Source of the DNA: a virus
Lineage: Duplodnaviria > Caudoviricetes
Virus record (IMG/VR): IMGVR_UViG_3300031555_001469
DNA: 64,000 nucleotides
Strand: one strand, 5' to 3'
Shown: piece after piece, positions 46,686-58,511 of the stretch
Numbering within the stretch: the first letter of the stretch is position 1
How the letters are laid out: each line of letters opens with the position of its first letter
Position numbers and translations under genes: made by a program
Notes under the pieces: generated by a model
What the model was told of the DNA's origin: nothing
Database searches by the model: none
What the model saw: only the letters and a program-made list of their open reading frames with translations

Positions 46686-47771
46686 TTAATCTGTACAAAC
46701 GCTATCACAGTAGCAATTGTCATCACAACCACAGTCATAATCACATACACAATTGTAATTACAGCAAGTACCATTACAACAATTATAGTCGCATGTACAA
46801 TCATTACCGCATCCATCTGCGCAGTCTCCATAACATCCACAGTCACTACCGCATCCATCCGGACAGTCATAATTACAACAGTCTTTATTACAAGAACAGT
46901 CTGTTCCACATCCGTCTGCACAATCACTATTACAAGAGCAATCTGAGCCACAACCATCTGCACAATCACTATTACAAGAGCAATCATAACAGTTATCATG
47001 TTGGCAATCTGAGTTACAGCAATCATAACATCCATCAAAATTACAACAATCGCCATTGCAAGCTCCATACCAAACATCTCCACAGTCATTACAATCTGTG
47101 CAATCAATGCATCCTTCTTGACAGTCTCTATTACAAGGACAGTCATTTACACAACAATCTGTTCCACATCCGTCTGCGCAGTCTCTATTACAAGAGCAAT
47201 CTGAACCACAACCATGTGCACAATCACTATTACAAGAACAGTCTGTACCGCAACCGTCTGAGCCGCAACCATGTGCGCAATTACTATTACAAGAACAGTC
47301 TGCACCACATCCATCTGCGCAATCGTTATCACACGGGCAATTGCTATCACAATAACAGTCATATACGCAACAATCGTAACACTTATTACTATCACAATCA
47401 CAGTCATAATCACAGCAGTTATTATCACAACTACAGTTGAAATTACAACAATCCTGATAGCAACTACAATAATCCTTATACACAGATGCTTGTGTTGAAG
47501 ATAGAGTATTAACTTGGCTAGGAGACATACCGCTTATATCGGTTGGTAATGTACTACCTTTATAATAATAATTCATTCTATCACTACTATCTTTAATACA
47601 AGCATTAATCTGATTAATCATATTAAGCAGATACTGTTTATTAACAACAGTACCAGACGTTAAAGTTGTTGCTGATCCTGAAAATCCATATCTATTATAA
47701 GTTTTAATTACATTAGAATTTATGGTATTCATATCAGCAGCTGTTAATTTTTCACCTGACGATATAGCCAT
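46686..47771 (-). CDS. Cys/Asp/Asn-rich repeat protein, putative substrate of the adjacent radical SAM enzyme
   Basis: About 100-aa N-terminal domain, then about 80 Cys including a repeated 14-aa unit DCSCNSDCADGCG(S/T). Confidence 0.75.
   Translation of the reverse strand: MAISSGEKLTAADMNTINSNVIKTYNRYGFSGSATTLTSGTVVNKQYLLNMINQINACIKDSSDRMNYYYKGSTLPTDISGMSPSQVNTLSSTQASVYKDYCSCYQDCCNFNCSCDNNCCDYDCDCDSNKCYDCCVYDCYCDSNCPCDNDCADGCGADCSCNSNCAHGCGSDGCGTDCSCNSDCAHGCGSDCSCNRDCADGCGTDCCVNDCPCNRDCQEGCIDCTDCNDCGDVWYGACNGDCCNFDGCYDCCNSDCQHDNCYDCSCNSDCADGCGSDCSCNSDCADGCGTDCSCNKDCCNYDCPDGCGSDCGCYGDCADGCGNDCTCDYNCCNGTCCNYNCVCDYDCGCDDNCYCDSVCTD
46890..47335 (-). repeat. Imperfect 42-bp coding repeats
   Basis: CAATCACTATTACAAGA(G/A)CA-type units recur and encode DCSCNSDC. 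Confidence 0.7.
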
Positions 47772-47804
47772 ACTTTTCACACTCCTATCTTTTGTTTACA
47801 AAGA

Positions 47805-50873: not shown

Positions 50874-53057
50874 TTATTTATATACTACATAAATAGTATC
50901 AGTTGCTAAAGCACTCGAACCAGCAGTTAAATCTGTCGTACCTTTAGTTATCGGTCTTAAATTATAGTCTGAATAATTTGCTGTATGGAGCACAACGTGA
51001 TCTTTATATGTGCCATCAGAAGCTACACATCTATATTGTAATCCATTTTTATCATTAGGCTGATAAGTGTAATTACAAACCAATAAGCCTCTATAAGCAT
51101 TTTCTTGCCCAGGGGTAGTATAAGCTCGTACAGTAGCATGATTAGCATCCGCCAAGAATCTCCCATAGCCACTTTGTACAGCTATATTTCCAGTTAATGT
51201 ACCACCACTCTTAGGTAATGCATAAGTGCTAATGTTTCCAGAGTGCACCATTGTAACATTACCTGTTGTATTACTATTGAAATCTATATGGAATGCTTTA
51301 GATATTGAATTATGCGTAGCAAAGAATCTAATATGATTATCACATACATCAATGTGTACATCTTTATCAAATACATTATTAGTTTCTGGTTTAGCTAATA
51401 CTATCTCTCCACCTTCGCTACCAGAAGCGGCCATTATATAAAGTCCACCAGTAAATGTAGTCTTTCCAGTAACAGTACCACCAGATGTTTTTAAATATGT
51501 GGTAGAAATTTTATTTCCATCACCATCATTTAATGCTCTATTGGCATAGTACCAATTAGCTGGATTTTCTATAGTATGATCTACTGTAGTCATTGGGGTT
51601 ATTGTATAAGACACATCCCAACCACTTCCCCAATCTTCATATTTATTACCCCAATGGCCTATTGTCACATCAGAAATTCTGATATTAGGATAAGACCATT
51701 GAGTATCGGAGTTACCAATCTGAACAACACATTGCCCCCCATTATTTCCAAAATGTACAGGTAAATTACTAATTGCTGAATTAGCAGCAGATCTGCTTAT
51801 GGAATATGCTGATATACATTGCCAAATAACAGAATCTTTACATATATATCCAGCAACAAAATAATCACATGATTTATCTGGTTCAAAATCATATATGGAA
51901 ATTTTGAATTTAATCATAGTATAAGAATAGAATTGAGGTAGAGTAATTGTTAAATATCCAGTAACATTAGCTTCTTTAATAGAATAACTACCGCCTTCTG
52001 GATAAGCAATATATCCATCTTTTCCTACAGCCGGCAATTGAATTTCGCCTGCTGTTTCTTCATCTAAAATTTTAAAATAATTTGCATTTACATCAAATCG
52101 GTATAAGCCAGTATACCCATCTCTCATTAATAAAGATCCGTAAGCTCCAGCTGCATTACCAAACTGAATTCCGGCATCACCGGTTGTTTCAGTTCTAAAT
52201 AATCTCAGCATAATTGGATCTGAATGGGCTATGCGTATAGAACCATTTATTATACCACCTGATAAAGGTAAGCAATACATGTCATAATTACCAGTATCTA
52301 AAATTTCTTCAGCTGTAGAGAAATCACTAGATGCTCGCACTAAATAGCCATTGCTAAATCCGATAGAACCCATAATTTTAGCTTTATTGGCAAAGGCGAG
52401 CATTGAAGTATTATATTCACTAATATCATTAAGCATTAAAGGTATCATAGAAGCAGTTATTGCTTGCGAACCTATCACTTTAACTGCAGAGGAATCAATA
52501 TTATCAATGGCTTCAGTAATAGTACTACCAATTGAACTAATGTCAGTATCTCCTATTTTTGTAATCAATTCTATTAAACTCTTTATAGCTTTAGAAATTG
52601 ATCCAAATAAAGTTTTCATTGTACTTCCGGATGCAACTTCAGCCAAAGTTTCATCCTCAGTAAATTCTACCGTATTTGTACCTATGTCAGAATATTTTTC
52701 GACATAATTAAATAGATCTAAGTTAAATGCTTCTAATACTTGAGGCTCCTCTCCATCCCACCAAAAGTCAGGTGAACCCATATCTCTTATAAGAAAAGTA
52801 TCACCTACTTTGAGTGTAGCAATATTCTCATCAGTTAACCAAGCCTCTAATTCATCTATTGTATCAAAAACACGTATTGTTGTAGCTCCTTGAGCCATCG
52901 ATAATGCCATTTTAGCATTTTGTGAACTTTCCTCCACTTCACTATACAATTTAGTTACATTGCTAGATAATGACTCTAAATTTATTTTGTCTTCTTTAGA
53001 CATTAAACCATCTCTAGCACCTGTAGCAAAAGATCTAGGGAAATTATTATGAAGCAT
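50874..53057 (-). CDS. Tail fibre protein A
   Basis: True start MLHNNFPRSFAT with GGAG RBS; DGLMSKEDK; repeated LPxSGGxxxG fibre motifs; late motif at 53092-53104. Confidence 0.7.
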   Translation of the reverse strand: MLHNNFPRSFATGARDGLMSKEDKINLESLSSNVTKLYSEVEESSQNAKMALSMAQGATTIRVFDTIDELEAWLTDENIATLKVGDTFLIRDMGSPDFWWDGEEPQVLEAFNLDLFNYVEKYSDIGTNTVEFTEDETLAEVASGSTMKTLFGSISKAIKSLIELITKIGDTDISSIGSTITEAIDNIDSSAVKVIGSQAITASMIPLMLNDISEYNTSMLAFANKAKIMGSIGFSNGYLVRASSDFSTAEEILDTGNYDMYCLPLSGGIINGSIRIAHSDPIMLRLFRTETTGDAGIQFGNAAGAYGSLLMRDGYTGLYRFDVNANYFKILDEETAGEIQLPAVGKDGYIAYPEGGSYSIKEANVTGYLTITLPQFYSYTMIKFKISIYDFEPDKSCDYFVAGYICKDSVIWQCISAYSISRSAANSAISNLPVHFGNNGGQCVVQIGNSDTQWSYPNIRISDVTIGHWGNKYEDWGSGWDVSYTITPMTTVDHTIENPANWYYANRALNDGDGNKISTTYLKTSGGTVTGKTTFTGGLYIMAASGSEGGEIVLAKPETNNVFDKDVHIDVCDNHIRFFATHNSISKAFHIDFNSNTTGNVTMVHSGNISTYALPKSGGTLTGNIAVQSGYGRFLADANHATVRAYTTPGQENAYRGLLVCNYTYQPNDKNGLQYRCVASDGTYKDHVVLHTANYSDYNLRPITKGTTDLTAGSSALATDTIYVVYK

Positions 53058-53115: not shown

Positions 53116-53144
53116 AGCCAGAGTATCAGAAAGATACTCTGGCT
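53116..53144 (-). terminator. Terminator hairpin, CCAGAGTATC family
   Basis: AGCCAGAGTATC-5 nt-GATACTCTGGCT with a T-tract on the minus strand. Confidence 0.7.
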
Positions 53145-53148
53145 AATT

Positions 53149-54561
53149 TTATTTATCTTTTTCTTCACTTCTACGTTTAAGTTCTTGCCAAGTAATATCT
53201 CCTTTATACTCCAAACTAGGAAGAGAAAGTAACATTTCAAATTCCTCTTCTGGAATAATTTTGAGAGCCCACTCTCTTGAAACGTATAAGTTATACCTAT
53301 TTTCAGGCTCTTTAAGTTCATAGTATTTAGCCCAATAATAAGCATTTGCTAAAGCTCTTGCTTTATGCATTTCACAGATATATGTCGCACGCTTATTAGC
53401 AGTACCATATGTCTGATAATTGTAAGCTGAGCACCATGAGCACCCATCTGCAATAGGGCAATAAAAGCATTCATCAGTACTCTGAGTTTTTCTATCAATA
53501 CAATTTAAGCAATTGATATTACAAGAATAATCTTCGGAAGTACCAATACCTTCATCAACACTACCTATTCTTAAAGGTTTTCTTGAACAACCTAAAGAAC
53601 TTTCCATATATCTAATACAAGGATAAAGATAACCATCTGGGTCACAGGCTAACATAAGGCAGTTACCACCACACCAATTTGTTATATCATCCTCATGTTT
53701 AGGTACAAAAAATTTCTCATCGAAAATGGATAAGAACACATCTTCAACCACATCTTTTTCAATTATATAATCAGCAGCTTGCTTTAACTGATAATATAAT
53801 TCGGTAGCATGGTGTTGTTCCCATCCTTCTTCATACACACAATTAGCATTAATATCTTTATAACCTAATTCAATCATGTGTTTTAAAGCAGAAAATACAT
53901 GCTGTATATTAGCCGGGGCAATAGTGATTTTACTTCCCATATAGTACCCTTTGGACATCCAATCTGTAGCACCAGCAATAGCAATATCATAGCTAGGAGA
54001 TCCATCGTGGAATACTCTACAGCTATCATGCAATTCTTTATTCCCGTCTATTGTAATAGAAAAAGAAATATTGTTTTTATACTTATCTAAGAATTTCTGC
54101 ACTCTTTCGTCAAAGTATAATACACCATTAGAGCAGATAGATATCATAAACTTATCAACCCATGGATGGTTCAATCTAATACATTCACGAAAGAAATAAC
54201 TTACTATCTTATCAATTAACTCTATTTCTAAAAAAGGTTCCCCACCAATAAATTCAATTATAACAGCAGGAGATTTAGAAGGGTTAATATATTCATCAAA
54301 TCCTTTTTCTCCACTAAGCAATAAATCGATAAATTTCTTAGCAGTTTCAAAAGACATTTTTCTTTGGCCTTTGTTAATCTGGTAGCAATAAGTACATGCC
54401 AGATTACAAGCGTCTGTTACCTGAAAAGTAACTGTACGAGATAAAGTAGAATTTGTTGATTTACCAGATTCATCTACTGTAACCAACTCAGGATATAATC
54501 TTGCAATCTTATCCTGATACTGTTCAAATTCTCGCCTGTTTCTTTTTCTCTCTCTAAGCAT
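53149..54561 (-). CDS. Radical SAM/SPASM peptide maturase, CXXX-repeat target family-like
   Basis: TFQVTDACNLACTYCYQ, FIGGEP; full SPASM WCGG...YPCIRY...CFYCPIADGCSWCSAYNY...ICEMH; resembles TIGR04115 as recalled. Confidence 0.88.
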   Translation of the reverse strand: MLRERKRNRREFEQYQDKIARLYPELVTVDESGKSTNSTLSRTVTFQVTDACNLACTYCYQINKGQRKMSFETAKKFIDLLLSGEKGFDEYINPSKSPAVIIEFIGGEPFLEIELIDKIVSYFFRECIRLNHPWVDKFMISICSNGVLYFDERVQKFLDKYKNNISFSITIDGNKELHDSCRVFHDGSPSYDIAIAGATDWMSKGYYMGSKITIAPANIQHVFSALKHMIELGYKDINANCVYEEGWEQHHATELYYQLKQAADYIIEKDVVEDVFLSIFDEKFFVPKHEDDITNWCGGNCLMLACDPDGYLYPCIRYMESSLGCSRKPLRIGSVDEGIGTSEDYSCNINCLNCIDRKTQSTDECFYCPIADGCSWCSAYNYQTYGTANKRATYICEMHKARALANAYYWAKYYELKEPENRYNLYVSREWALKIIPEEEFEMLLSLPSLEYKGDITWQELKRRSEEKDK

Positions 54562-54910
54562 TATGATCATCTCCTGATAATTCAAAGTTATCAAATGCTG
54601 TTCCGATTGTAGAGAATGTTAAAATACCAGAAGTAAAATCCAAGTTCCAATTTGCTACTGCATTAGCCTTCATGATTTCTTCTGGAATATAATTATTAAT
54701 TAATTCGTTCTTTCCTAATTCATAAGCAGCAACTCTTTCATTATACTTCTTATTATAAAGAACAAATGTTTCAGATTCAAGAATAGCAGGGTTATTAGCA
54801 TTATCTGTAATAAGCTCCTTAATAATCCTTGACATTCCTTCAAGTTCGAAAGATAATCTTTCGAGATAATCTACAGTTTCACTATTTACTTTCATAGCAA
54901 AATTTTTCAT
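54554..54910 (-). CDS. CXXX-repeat modification system accessory protein-like
   Basis: Helical protein ending NWNLDFTSGILTF, resembling TIGR04116 as recalled; overlaps the rSAM start; late motif at 54937-54949. Confidence 0.55.
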   Translation of the reverse strand: MKNFAMKVNSETVDYLERLSFELEGMSRIIKELITDNANNPAILESETFVLYNKKYNERVAAYELGKNELINNYIPEEIMKANAVANWNLDFTSGILTFSTIGTAFDNFELSGDDHNA

Positions 54911-54961
54911 AATATAATTCTCCTTTTTATTTTATTTTAATAATAAGTTCGAGGCATAATT

Positions 54962-55912
54962 TTATATAGTTTTACCAGTAGCTCCCCCAAAGCATTGAGA
55001 GGTACAAGAAGTATTACATGTAGAACTACAAGTAGAGCTACAACTACTCTTACAATTTCCAGAACAACTACTTGAACATCCATAACATCCACCATCGCAT
55101 CCAGAGCAACCAGAACATGATCCACCGCATCCAGAGCATCCATAGCAGTCTCCAGAGCATCCGCTACCACAACCACTACTACATCCAGAACAACCAGAAC
55201 ATGAACTACATCCATCACATCCAGAGCAACTAGTACATTGCCATCCACATCCACCAGTACATCCGCCACCGCAAGAAGCACTACAGCCACTACTACAGTT
55301 AGCAGAACCATCTGTTGATCCTGAACATGAACCTGTACAGCTAGTACAACCAGCACCGCATCCACCGCATGAAGAACAACCACTTCCGCATCCAGAGCAT
55401 CCGCCGCATCCACTACTACATCCACCACATCCAGAACATCCACTACATCCAGAGCATGAACCGCAGCCAGAACATCCCTTACAACCGTAAGTACAAGATG
55501 ATCCGCAACCAGAGCAGCCACCACATCCACCACATCCAGAACATCCACTACAACCAGTATTACACATACCATAACATAATCCAGTACATGCACCTCTACA
55601 AGAAGAAGATGAACCTGTTACAGATTCAGCTGCCCATTTATCTAATACACTATTTAAAGTAGCATAGTCGAAACTAGAAGGCAATTTTTCTCCAGCAACG
55701 ACATTTCTTAAATTACCTACGTCTGCTACTTTTAAAATTAAATCAATAGTTTTCTGCCCATGCTCCGCTAAAATTTTGCCGCCGGTAGCAGGACTAGTAG
55801 TAAAATCATAAGTAGCAGCAGTATAACCACTTAGTGAGCCATAATATTGTCTTCTGGCAAACTCAGTTTTTATTTTTGCTTTTATCGCAATTAATTCAGA
55901 CGGAGTCATCAT
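54962..55912 (-). CDS. Cys/Gly/Ser-rich CxxC/CxxxC repeat protein 1 (putative rSAM substrate)
   Basis: About 100-aa N-terminal domain, then about 57 Cys spaced every 3-4 residues; late motif at 55973-55985. Confidence 0.8.
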
Positions 55913-56007
55913 AAGTATTATTTCCTTTCTTCTAATATAGTATTTATAGGATTCTTAAGTAAGTATAACCTATTATTTAAATGTTTCTGTAGCCGATTCA
56001 GAGGTAA

Positions 56008-56038
56008 ATACCAGAGTATCGTAATGATACTCTGGTAT
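56008..56038 (-). terminator. Terminator hairpin, CCAGAGTATC family
   Basis: ATACCAGAGTATC-GTAAT-GATACTCTGGTAT. Confidence 0.65.
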
Positions 56039-56044
56039 ATCCAT

Positions 56045-56866
56045 TTAACTTTTTGTTGATGTTCCATAACACTGTGCAGTACACGTACTATAACAAGTAC
56101 TACTGCAAGTAGTATTACAGCTATTGATACATCCCGATGAACAGCTAGATGAACAGCCTCCTCCGCATCCAGAGCAGCTAGAACATCCGCTTGAACAATC
56201 AGCACATCCATTACACCCGCTACAAGAACTACAATGACCATCACATCCAGCACATAGCCCTTGACAGCCATTTACGCATGTACTATAGCATCCTCCACTA
56301 CACGTACTAGAACACATAGTACAATTAGCTTGACAGGCTCCAGAACATGACATACTACAACTGGTACAACCATTACAGCCAGAACATCCACCTTGACATC
56401 CTACTGAGCATGTATTACCACAAGCTGTATCACATCCACTACATGTACCGCAACCTGTACATCCGTTACAACTATTTTCGCAACCTGAACACCCACTACA
56501 TCCAGAACAAGTAGAACCACAAGTACCTACACATAAGCCAGTACATGCACCTCTACAAGAAGATGTAGCTCCGGTAATTTCTTCAGTTGCTAAAATGTCT
56601 ACATAATTAATTAAAGCTTCATCAAAACCACTCGGTATTAATAAACCAGTCGATACACTAGGTAATCCCTCATGATCTTTTATCTTTAATAGTAATTCAA
56701 TAGTTTTTTGACCATGCTCTGCTCTTATTAATTCTCCTGCAATTGGAGTAAATAAAAAATCATAATTAGCAGACGTATAGCCAGCTAACGATCCATAGTA
56801 TTTTCTTCTAGCAAACTCATCCTTAATTTTACTCTTTAGTGTAATTAGCTGAGCTGCTGATAACAT
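56045..56866 (-). CDS. Cys/Gly/Ser-rich repeat protein 2 (paralog of 54962)
   Basis: Shares EFARRxYYGSL, AEHGQKTI and [11 protein letters not shown] with 54962; about 46 Cys. Confidence 0.8.
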   Translation of the reverse strand: MLSAAQLITLKSKIKDEFARRKYYGSLAGYTSANYDFLFTPIAGELIRAEHGQKTIELLLKIKDHEGLPSVSTGLLIPSGFDEALINYVDILATEEITGATSSCRGACTGLCVGTCGSTCSGCSGCSGCENSCNGCTGCGTCSGCDTACGNTCSVGCQGGCSGCNGCTSCSMSCSGACQANCTMCSSTCSGGCYSTCVNGCQGLCAGCDGHCSSCSGCNGCADCSSGCSSCSGCGGGCSSSCSSGCINSCNTTCSSTCYSTCTAQCYGTSTKS

Positions 56867-56891: not shown

Positions 56892-58511
56892 TTAGGATAC
56901 CATAATAAGTATCTTAACTTTTCCAATATCATCGGTATCTTTATTTTCTAAAGCTTTACCGATAATTGTTCCAGGAATAACAATATTTCTATCCTGAGTT
57001 ATTCCTACACCAGGTACATCTGAAGGGATAATAAGATCACCTTTAGATACAGTACCTTTTACTTTTACATATAATCGTCCTGCTAAACCAACAGGTACGA
57101 ACTTCTTATGGTTATCTTCCATATCTTCTAATTGTTCTCCTCCGACAATATGGCCATAGGAATCAGAATAAACACCAACGACCATAGTATCTCCATAACA
57201 ACTAGATTTAGTTACACCAGATTCTGCCCAAGAGACAATATCTCCCGGTTCAAATTCTTCGTGTATATTCTCTTTCTCAAACCACTCGGCATAGTCGTTC
57301 CAAACTGCGTTGTAAACTTTACTACCAGTGATTGTACCAGAAGCATTAATAGCTCCAGCTTTAAAAGTTACAGAATTTATTGATAAAGTACCACTAGCAG
57401 ATTCAATAATTCTTGATGTATAATCTGCAGTAGAACTACCAAAATGGAAATCAATATATGGTGTAGCTGCAAAAAGCTCCATACATTGACTTTCGAAAGT
57501 AGTACCTTTAATTGTAGCAGCACAATAAAAACTCTTTCCGCCAGATACTTTTACATATGTAGTATCTTCCATAAAAATACCGCCACCATAAGTACTATTG
57601 TACCACCCGTTACTGTATATATTTGCACATTTAACTGGAGCGTTAGCTGCTCCATCTTGAGCCATAAAATTAAATACGCCTGTATTATCCATTAATAACG
57701 AAGCTGCTATAACACCATTCCAATGGAATCCTATAGAAGGAGCATATCCTATTGTAGATTGAGTATTGCCAACTAATCCATTTTCTCTTATAGTTATGGC
57801 AGCATTGTTAAACCTATTTGCAGCTGTAGCTGTATATATACCGGCTGGTTCAAATAATCTTTTTCCGTTCATATTTATATCTCCAGTCATGATACCACCA
57901 GAGAGTTTTAAATATGATTTAGAAATATTACTAACTGCTTCAGATACGGTAGTACCTGAATCACTAACATCAGTAGATCCGACCCTAGCAATTAAACTTA
58001 TTAAATCGCTTACTGCTTTAGAAACAGTAGCAAATAATGTAGTTAATTTACTTCCGCTACTAATTTTTGTTAATTCTGTAGCTTCTGTATAAGCAACCGT
58101 AGTATTGCTCGCATTTCCTGATAAAGTAAGATAGTCACTAAGATCCACTTTTTCTGTTTCAAGAATCTGAAGCTCTTCGCCATCCCACCAATAGTCAGGA
58201 TTGTACATATCTTTGATTAATAAAGTCGTACCTATTTTGAGTCCAGCTTTATTTGTCTCTACTGCTAACCATGCATCTAAATCAGCTTTGGTTTCAAATA
58301 CAATAGCAGATACTTTATCGAGCGCTGTTTGTAACGCTAAATTAGCTAAATCTTTTACTTCTGGAACTTCACCTAAAAGATAATCGATATCAGCCCTATT
58401 TTCAGTAATATTTTTTGGAAATGTGTTATCCACTAAATATTTATCTTCTTTAGACATTAACCCATCTCTTGCAGATGTAGCAAAAGATCTAGGCAAATTA
58501 TTATGAAGCAT
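56892..58511 (-). CDS. Tail fibre protein B with a C-terminal intramolecular chaperone (peptidase G2-like) domain
   Basis: Same N-terminus as fibre A; C-terminal DYAEWF...PGDIV...VGLAGRLYVKV...KGDLI...IIGKALE; late motif at 58556-58568. Confidence 0.7.
   Translation of the reverse strand: MLHNNLPRSFATSARDGLMSKEDKYLVDNTFPKNITENRADIDYLLGEVPEVKDLANLALQTALDKVSAIVFETKADLDAWLAVETNKAGLKIGTTLLIKDMYNPDYWWDGEELQILETEKVDLSDYLTLSGNASNTTVAYTEATELTKISSGSKLTTLFATVSKAVSDLISLIARVGSTDVSDSGTTVSEAVSNISKSYLKLSGGIMTGDINMNGKRLFEPAGIYTATAANRFNNAAITIRENGLVGNTQSTIGYAPSIGFHWNGVIAASLLMDNTGVFNFMAQDGAANAPVKCANIYSNGWYNSTYGGGIFMEDTTYVKVSGGKSFYCAATIKGTTFESQCMELFAATPYIDFHFGSSTADYTSRIIESASGTLSINSVTFKAGAINASGTITGSKVYNAVWNDYAEWFEKENIHEEFEPGDIVSWAESGVTKSSCYGDTMVVGVYSDSYGHIVGGEQLEDMEDNHKKFVPVGLAGRLYVKVKGTVSKGDLIIPSDVPGVGITQDRNIVIPGTIIGKALENKDTDDIGKVKILIMVS

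Follow-up and report, generated by a model that had tools for sequence, protein, structure and literature searches.

A CXXX-family radical SAM module among the tail-fibre genes of a jumbo phage: a candidate thioether-stapled tail appendage

What does a tailed phage do with a peptide-maturing radical S-adenosylmethionine (rSAM) enzyme and two proteins carrying long ladders of regularly spaced cysteines, all encoded between its tail-fibre genes? The question is raised by the virus record IMGVR_UViG_3300031555_001469 (Duplodnaviria; Caudoviricetes), of which a stretch of 64,000 nucleotides, here called the window, was analyzed. A preliminary description had singled out positions 53149-56866 as module 1, with a CXXX-type maturase, an accessory protein and two paralogous precursors, here named preA and preB. 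We regard module 1 as the jumbo-phage copy of a gut-Clostridia cassette that consists of a tail fibre, one or two proteins with an N-terminal domain (N-domain) and a Cys ladder, an accessory protein and a CXXX-family rSAM/SPASM enzyme. The reading we favour, with confidence and doubt about evenly balanced, is that its product is a thioether-stapled tail appendage; we infer both the chemistry and the location in the virion. The features on which the argument is built are listed below (aa, amino acids).

53149..54570, minus strand: radical SAM/SPASM maturase, CXXX-repeat target family by profile (TIGR04115, 499 bits)
56045..56866, minus strand: preA, 273 aa, with N-domain (residues 1-103) and Cys tract (residues 104-266, 46 Cys), terminal CTAQCYG
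56558..56866, minus strand: N-domain of preA, residues 1-103; 56% identity to the preB N-domain, profile matching 336 clusters, AlphaFold2 (AF2) pLDDT (local distance difference test, predicted) 84
56519..56563, minus strand: entry motif of preA, residues 102-116, with conservation in 80 family members
56069..56557, minus strand: Cys tract of preA, residues 104-266, made of CxxC and CxxxC units
54962..55912, minus strand: preB, 316 aa, with N-domain (residues 1-104) and Cys tract (residues 105-307, 57 Cys), terminal CTSQCFG
54992..55600, minus strand: Cys tract of preB, containing imperfect DNA repeats of 9, 18, 27 and 30 bp
54554..54910, minus strand: accessory protein, 118 aa, between precursor and rSAM; AF2 pLDDT 91

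The presence of a CXXX-type maturase was confirmed by profile search. The rSAM protein matched TIGR04115, "radical SAM peptide maturase, CXXX-repeat target family", at 499.4 bits against a cut-off of 350 (E 7e-150), with residues 53-420 covering profile positions 2-359 of 359. The cut-offs of other families were far from reached, and by these scores the enzyme is a true CXXX-family maturase. The next-best matches were PapB (166 bits), SCIFF/CteB (99), QhpD (98) and CcpM (95), all of which are Cys-thioether maturases. The CX3CX2C motif was present as CNLACTYC at residues 63-70, and the SPASM region (308-407) held Cys at 308, 312, 317, 326, 336, 358, 362, 365, 376, 379, 385, 388 and 407. Alignments to the relatives began near rSAM residue 45-54, which corresponds to the relatives' profile position ~80-90 onward; the phage enzyme therefore lacks their N-terminal recognition element (RRE) for peptides that are made by ribosomes and modified after translation (RiPPs), a domain of 80-90 aa. 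The open reading frame (ORF; 53149-54594) encodes 481 aa, and the probable ATG start lies at 54570, preceded by AGGAG. This start falls within the end of the accessory gene with a 17-nt overlap, which suggests translational coupling. We consider it very likely that the enzyme modifies preA and preB and, by analogy with its relatives, the modification is probably thioether formation. Two related rSAM genes, L014:4825-7212 and L010:10269-13814, encode 795 and 1181 aa with inserts that match the intein-site regions of NrdD, helicase, terminase and DNA polymerase PHROGs, and these two maturases are probably interrupted by inteins.

The two candidate substrates are indeed paralogues with a common N-terminal domain of ~100 aa. 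Overall identity between preA and preB was 42% (BLASTP E 2e-58), rising to 56% in the first 108 residues, and KIKxEFARRxYYGSL, AEHGQKTI and an 11-residue entry motif were present in both. Counting the spacing of the cysteines bore out the description of tracts built from three- and four-residue units: the 46 Cys of preA are separated by 18 gaps of three residues and 27 of four, with no others, and the 57 Cys of preB by 28 gaps of three, 27 of four and one of 10. Such spacing cannot be due to chance. The residues between the cysteines are chiefly Ser, Gly and Thr, Cys makes up 28% of the tract, and both precursors end similarly, in C-T-x-Q-C-(Y/F)-G. The tracts (163-203 residues) contain only 3-4 Asp and 0-1 Glu and are poor in Asp, Glu, Asn and Gln. 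Neither precursor matched Pfam or PHROGs. The single precursor of the nearest relative, L014, was closer to preB than to preA.

The AF2 model of the N-domain (pLDDT 84, pTM 0.78) was mainly helical, and by this prediction the N-domain is a real, independently folding unit. A Foldseek search of the model against the PDB returned nothing at E<=1e-3, the best VIA wide match had a Z of 4.9, and in BFVD only uncharacterized gut-virome relatives were found. The N-domain profile was also searched against 1.84 billion representatives (50% identity clusters) and matched 336 clusters at E<=1e-3, 140 of them at E<=1e-10. Nearly all of these matches ran on into the entry motif and a CxxC/CxxxC tract.

The anatomy of the family was derived from 24 full-length members with ~1,700 inter-Cys gaps, ~97% of which were three or four residues long. 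Across these members the tract ranged from 78 to 536 residues and from 21 to 144 Cys. Both of its ends were conserved: in 80 family members C104, C108, G110 and C112 of the entry motif were invariant and L111, C116 and C120 nearly so, and the exit motif ...C-x-x-Q-C-[FYW]-G was kept across the family. Fixed entry and exit caps with a free number of repeats are expected of a rod-like repeat structure. The comparison among related phages that the preliminary description had suggested thus found variable length between conserved ends. Its proposal of a variable tract holds between phages, where the length runs from 78 to 536 aa; ongoing variability found no support, as four further contigs of this phage, recovered from different samples, were 100% identical in the module, and 34 of 35 close relatives had 60-64 Cys. 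A hypervariable tract within this phage was ruled out by the same four contigs; the tract differs between phages and is not hypervariable within this one. An assembly effect explains why several metagenome contigs of the phage stop within preB, where a 35-bp repeat lies.

The context of the cassette was first read in the window, where the minus-strand ORFs from 58511 to 50874 run in the order tail fibre, preA, preB, accessory, rSAM and second fibre gene. The two flanking genes are as follows.

56892..58511, minus strand: upstream tail-fibre gene, 539 aa, with a Peptidase_G2/intramolecular-chaperone domain (Pfam PF11962, E 2.4e-7)
50874..53057, minus strand: downstream tail-fibre paralogue, ~727 aa, with the N-terminus MLHNN(F/L)PRSFA common to both window fibres

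The stop of the upstream fibre gene lies 25 nt ahead of preA, the Shine-Dalgarno sequence AAAGGA precedes preA, and a strong Shine-Dalgarno sequence was found before every gene of the module. On other contigs of this phage, gene calling gave the downstream paralogue 727 or 764 aa. A hairpin with a 12-bp stem at 53116-53144 sits inside the 91-nt gap between the rSAM stop and the downstream fibre start, and was rated terminator-like on the plus strand only.

In most of the loci inspected, a gene of a tail-fibre family stood directly upstream of the precursor, as in the window and in L001, L014, L004, L005, L008, L015, L019, L021, L024, L026 and L029. These upstream fibre genes belong to differing families; homologues of the window fibre were found in L001 and L014. 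This arrangement bears on the possibility that the product is an intracellular host-takeover or anti-defence factor, such as a decoy or an inhibitor, with the fibre genes next to it only incidentally. Phages do carry many small unexplained proteins, and the N-domain and accessory protein are without a known fold. Nevertheless, adjacency to fibre genes of different families is kept in many unrelated phages, the genes lie within a late structural block, and adsorption-type and tip domains occur in relatives; we regard an intracellular role as very improbable.

To describe the distribution of the cassette, 80 IMG/VR loci reached through the rSAM (268 contigs matched) were examined. The order N-domain protein, accessory, rSAM was present in 67 of the 80, and in most of a further set of 11 loci found through the N-domain and 18 loci in bacterial assemblies. 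The latter were nearly all from Clostridia (Lachnospiraceae, Oscillospiraceae, Emergencia, Agathobacter), with one labelled Tenericutes and one Raoultibacter, and included the cultured Eubacterium pyruvativorans i6. Outside the cassette, no proteins common to the window and the relatives' phages were detectable; the cassette is a mobile module. Searching three N-domains by tblastn against INPHARED gave no cultured phage and only the unverified metagenomic record MT835573, and the literature searches turned up nothing published on CXXX systems in phages or on the biochemistry of TIGR04115. The cassette is a widespread, unnamed phage and prophage module of gut Clostridia, and is a new phage variant of a named, uncharacterized maturase system. 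Judged by the searches made, the N-domain and accessory protein would represent two new protein families with no solved fold matched. In L003, the ENA contig encoding P0001, the gene matched the database protein only when TAG was read as Gln, and the N-domain family therefore also occurs in stop-codon-recoded phages. In L020:8001-8441 (Lachnospiraceae bacterium 47-T17), a short N-domain protein was followed by no accessory or rSAM gene in 2.4 kb of contig, which may reflect a cassette remnant or a contig-end effect.

The architecture of relatives provides a view of what the N-domain and tract might carry. P0057 contains a ~200-aa insert inside the N-domain that matches phrog_5499, "host range and adsorption protein" (3e-14), as well as PblB-type receptor-binding and tail-fibre PHROGs and, weakly, CBM_4_9. 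P0001 has an additional domain ahead of the N-domain, and P0004 and P0112 have non-Cys C-terminal domains of 185 and 400 aa after the tract. A further lineage, L040-L078 from IMG/VR, comprised 35 phages with at least 97% identical rSAMs, the one outside the 60-64 range having 55 Cys in its tract. In these phages the tract is followed by a poly-G run and then a C-terminal domain of ~170 aa in at least three sequence variants. This tip was in frame with G5, G7 or G9 and cut off by G4, G8 or TGA, so that the junction (e.g., L076:2068-3648, L064:134-1183) yields fused products of 483-574 aa vs. truncated ones of 331-390 aa. By its sequence, the junction looks like homopolymer phase variation or two fibre isoforms. 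Receptor-binding proteins typically combine a constant shaft with a varied tip.

These domain fusions, inserts and tips are easier to reconcile with an N-domain retained as a structural part than with a leader that is cleaved off. The preliminary description had offered a leader or a virion anchor; the domain itself stood up well, as it is predicted to fold independently and recurs in 336 clusters, and of the two roles the architectures favour, if not decisively, a structural domain that stays on the protein. In 19 of 80 loci a second, long Cys-tract protein lacked the N-domain, and likewise in L025, L028, L029 and L031. Such proteins make the N-domain unlikely as an obligatory cis leader, and for the leader proposal this means that modification may not need the domain in cis.

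Two arrangements of N-domain-less proteins were recorded. In the split architecture of L083-L103 (e.g., L084:2864-3661) and L025:8448-8999, an N-domain protein of 141-177 aa with ~10-18 Cys comes first and is followed by a Cys-tract protein of 183-267 aa, starting MACSKGCGTSC or MAMASSCPC, and then by the accessory and rSAM genes. In L028:10797-11354 and L031:2492-3145, the Cys-tract proteins lie after the rSAM and start with MLKMNLQFF(A/G). This start fits MLxx(D/N)LQ(F/L)F'A, the motif at which Prp cuts ribosomal protein L27; capsid and scaffold proteins of phage 80alpha are substrates of this host protease (PMC9405229). Within the window, the Cys/Asp-rich protein of a second module (46686-47780, minus strand) has a first ~100 residues collinear with the module 1 N-domain profile (hhalign probability 30%, E 5.5e-4, 86 columns; phmmer best E 0.006). 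No relatives of this module 2 substrate for profile building were found in IMG/VR. If the match is real, one docking domain would serve the substrates of two different rSAM enzymes.

If the N-domain were instead an unusually large leader that is removed, the modified tract could be a RiPP-like bioactive, secreted or released by lysis and not part of the virion. Its activity might be bacteriocin-like, signalling, or binding to host surface or mucus, with benefit to the lysogen or the phage. The enzyme does come from a RiPP-type maturase family, the bacterial counterparts are Tat-exported, many family members are small (140-230 aa, tracts of 10-30 Cys), and in prophages the cassette occupies a moron-prone tail-fibre/lysis site. 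On the other hand, no protease or exporter was found in or beside the cassette in the window and the loci read, tracts of 160-540 aa far exceed RiPP cores, and in the window phage the module genes are co-oriented and tightly packed with fibre genes. The adsorption-type and tip fusions and the domain placed before the N-domain would also not be tolerable for a leader. We therefore view a released product as unlikely.

The composition of the tract allows for a second alternative, in which the Cys ladder acts as a giant metallothionein or an Fe-S or metal scaffold, either as a virion site or as a metal or redox sink in the host, and the rSAM modifies few positions or serves another purpose. A tract with 28% Cys, CxxC/CxxxC spacing and small residues in between is consistent with this, as is the scarcity of the acceptor residues of known ranthipeptide synthases. 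Expression of the CrpA system rises on pyrite, and metal binding was suggested by the authors of that work (PMC13692751). However, the maturase is strictly co-inherited across hundreds of loci, which argues that covalent modification is central, and conserved caps with free length fit a repeat rod better than defined metal sites. Metal binding also leaves the tail-fibre synteny and tip fusions unexplained, and was judged slightly less probable again than a released product.

The accessory protein was modelled with a pLDDT of 91: one beta-strand is followed by a long hairpin of alpha-helices, and at the C-terminus comes a beta-hairpin that holds an invariant Trp. It had 156 homologues, none with a functional name, and was also encoded on a 229.8-kb contig. 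A Foldseek search of the model against the PDB gave nothing at E<=1e-3, and VIA wide returned generic helical hairpins only (Z<=7.3). The PqqD-like RRE is a winged helix of three strands then three helices vs. the strand, helical hairpin and beta-hairpin of the accessory model, and by these fold searches the accessory protein was not recognizable as a PqqD-like RRE. A relation to the TIGR04116 protein of bacterial CXXX systems was also considered. The two are similar in size, position and C-terminal Trp hairpin, and may be distantly homologous. The TIGR04116 hidden Markov model matched none of 10 accessory homologues at E<=10, BLASTP between the accessory and TIGR04116 gave nothing, and hhalign of 91 phage accessory against 11 bacterial sequences gave a probability of 6.9%, a weak test because the bacterial alignment is 86-99% identical. 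In the ESM-Atlas, a cluster of 578-aa, mostly viral CXXX maturases aligned to the accessory fold over ~110 residues (TM 0.70), which hints at an accessory-rSAM fusion and hence a physical partnership. By sequence, none of the 80 IMG/VR loci held such a fusion. A complex prediction of the accessory with the N-domain scored 0.00, which in a run with no controls speaks neither for nor against binding. P0008 (334 aa) is an N-domain/Cys-tract protein that continues into an accessory-like C-terminus (…WGLDFESRELTV…), which reflects either natural fusion of the two or a gene call that reads through.

For the thioether-stapled tail appendage, the following sequence of events would account for the module. 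Late in infection, in the anaerobic host cytoplasm, the RRE-less rSAM would work with the translationally coupled accessory protein to turn many of the regular cysteines of preA and preB into intramolecular thioethers to neighbouring Ser, Thr or Gly. This chemistry is taken from the nearest characterized relatives, which all form Cys-thioethers. Stapling would make a rigid rod, resistant to reduction and proteases and capped by the entry and exit motifs, out of a tract that by itself has no confident fold. The N-domain may be kept on the mature protein and dock to the virion or the tail fibre, and possibly also to the maturase. The product would then be a tail appendage or fibre shaft, with a swappable receptor-binding tip in some relatives. 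A possible rationale is that virions of strict anaerobes' phages are unable to rely on disulfides in the reducing gut and would use thioethers instead. On balance, we lean slightly towards association of the product with the virion. A broader view, that many phages of gut Clostridia, which are strict anaerobes, build a host-recognition part from a cysteine ladder stapled by dozens of thioethers, with a new docking fold, a helper fold and, in some lineages, a poly-G-switched tip, is put forward more tentatively.

Several points weigh against the stapled appendage. Both the modification and the virion content are deduced, and the N-domain was found in no cultured INPHARED phage. Asp, Glu, Asn and Gln, which serve PapB, QhpD and CrpC as acceptors, are scarce in the tracts, and the chemistry could differ. 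In Pfam and PHROGs searches the window's own precursors showed no fibre, tip or adsorption domain. For neither the N-domain nor the accessory protein was a solved fold matched, and their roles are read entirely from context. The 19 of 80 loci with long N-domain-less Cys-tract proteins indicate that the N-domain's role differs within the family. Finally, the tail-fibre/lysis slot is a classical site for morons that are not virion parts.

If the stapled appendage is real, it would be the first known case of a virion protein matured through radical-SAM chemistry of the RiPP type, and viruses would join CrpA and QHNDH as examples of protein-sized RiPP modification. Thioethers installed by an enzyme would here take the place of disulfides in a virion protein and be redox-proof. 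The CXXX-repeat maturase family, uncharacterized and very common among gut bacteria, would gain a testable function, and the N-domain and the accessory would each stand for a new protein fold or family. Furthermore, the appendage would offer a natural, genetically encoded route to long protease- and reduction-resistant rods and bear on how phages persist and recognize hosts in the gut, where oxygen is lacking and proteases abound. The question is directly testable, as there appear to be cultured lysogens (Eubacterium pyruvativorans i6, L025).

Among known systems, the bacterial CXXX system is represented by L002 (Prevotella-type, MT837480), with a Tat-signal Cys-repeat target (TIGR04117/04114), a TIGR04115 rSAM (630 bits), a second maturase (TIGR04119), a 91-aa TIGR04116 protein, TatA and TatC. 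So far as the literature searched shows, this system is uncharacterized. Its target is 174 aa long, which contradicts the statement in the preliminary description that bacterial CXXX targets are short peptides. Phage and bacterium share the TIGR04115 rSAM, an adjoining Cys-rich C-x-x-(x)-C target with small residues, and a ~100-aa helper gene beside the maturase. They differ in that the phage targets have a folded ~100-aa N-domain of no known family where the L002 target has a Tat signal, and the phage module has a fibre-gene context and no TatA or TatC whereas the bacterial system is an export operon. The L002 TIGR04119 protein found only an E 0.94 match by tblastn against the whole window, within the rSAM's own SPASM region, and no TIGR04119 ORF was present in the related loci read. 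preA, preB and four relatives gave nothing above cut-off with TIGR04114/TIGR04117 (Pfam PF27846), even at E<=10. The L001 relative reached TIGR04114 at 21.3 bits (cut-off 20), and PF27846 was found on 24-40% of members in related ESM-Atlas clusters. Going by these comparisons, the phage module seems to keep only the rSAM of the bacterial system in recognizable form.

No virion protein matured by a radical-SAM enzyme was found in the literature searched. The isopeptide chainmail of the HK97 capsid is a covalently cross-linked virion protein; it forms autocatalytically, with no dedicated enzyme. Gly-rich or collagen-like fibre shafts place a low-complexity repeat between an anchoring N-terminus and a receptor-binding tip. 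The likeness of both to the phage Cys-ladder proteins is conceptual.

The nearest biochemically characterized relatives of the rSAM are PapB/PapA (freyrasin) and SCIFF/CteB. The phage enzyme lies below the cut-offs of both (NF047865, 166.5 bits vs. 340; TIGR03974, 99 bits vs. 425), and their substrates are peptides of ~50 aa with a short leader and an Asp or Thr acceptor pattern that is not in the phage tracts. Still, PapB makes a series of small Cys-X3-Asp thioether rings on one peptide and is the best model for laddered stapling. The CrpC/CrpA system of Methanococcus voltae (TIGR04463) is archaeal and cellular whereas the phage module is viral; the phage rSAM scores only 52.8 bits on TIGR04463 (cut-off 525), CrpC has its own RRE, and the CrpA repeats are 17 residues long with C-x-x-Q/D acceptors, compared with phage units of 3-4 residues with Ser/Thr/Gly. 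CrpC installs ranthionine cross-links on the 28.8-kDa (28,766 Da) Cys-rich CrpA, which it engages via N-terminal protein domains (PMC13692751). In both systems, a SPASM rSAM acts, or in the phage would act, on a whole Cys-rich protein and not on a peptide, and two adjacent substrates have a common N-terminal region followed by differing repeats.

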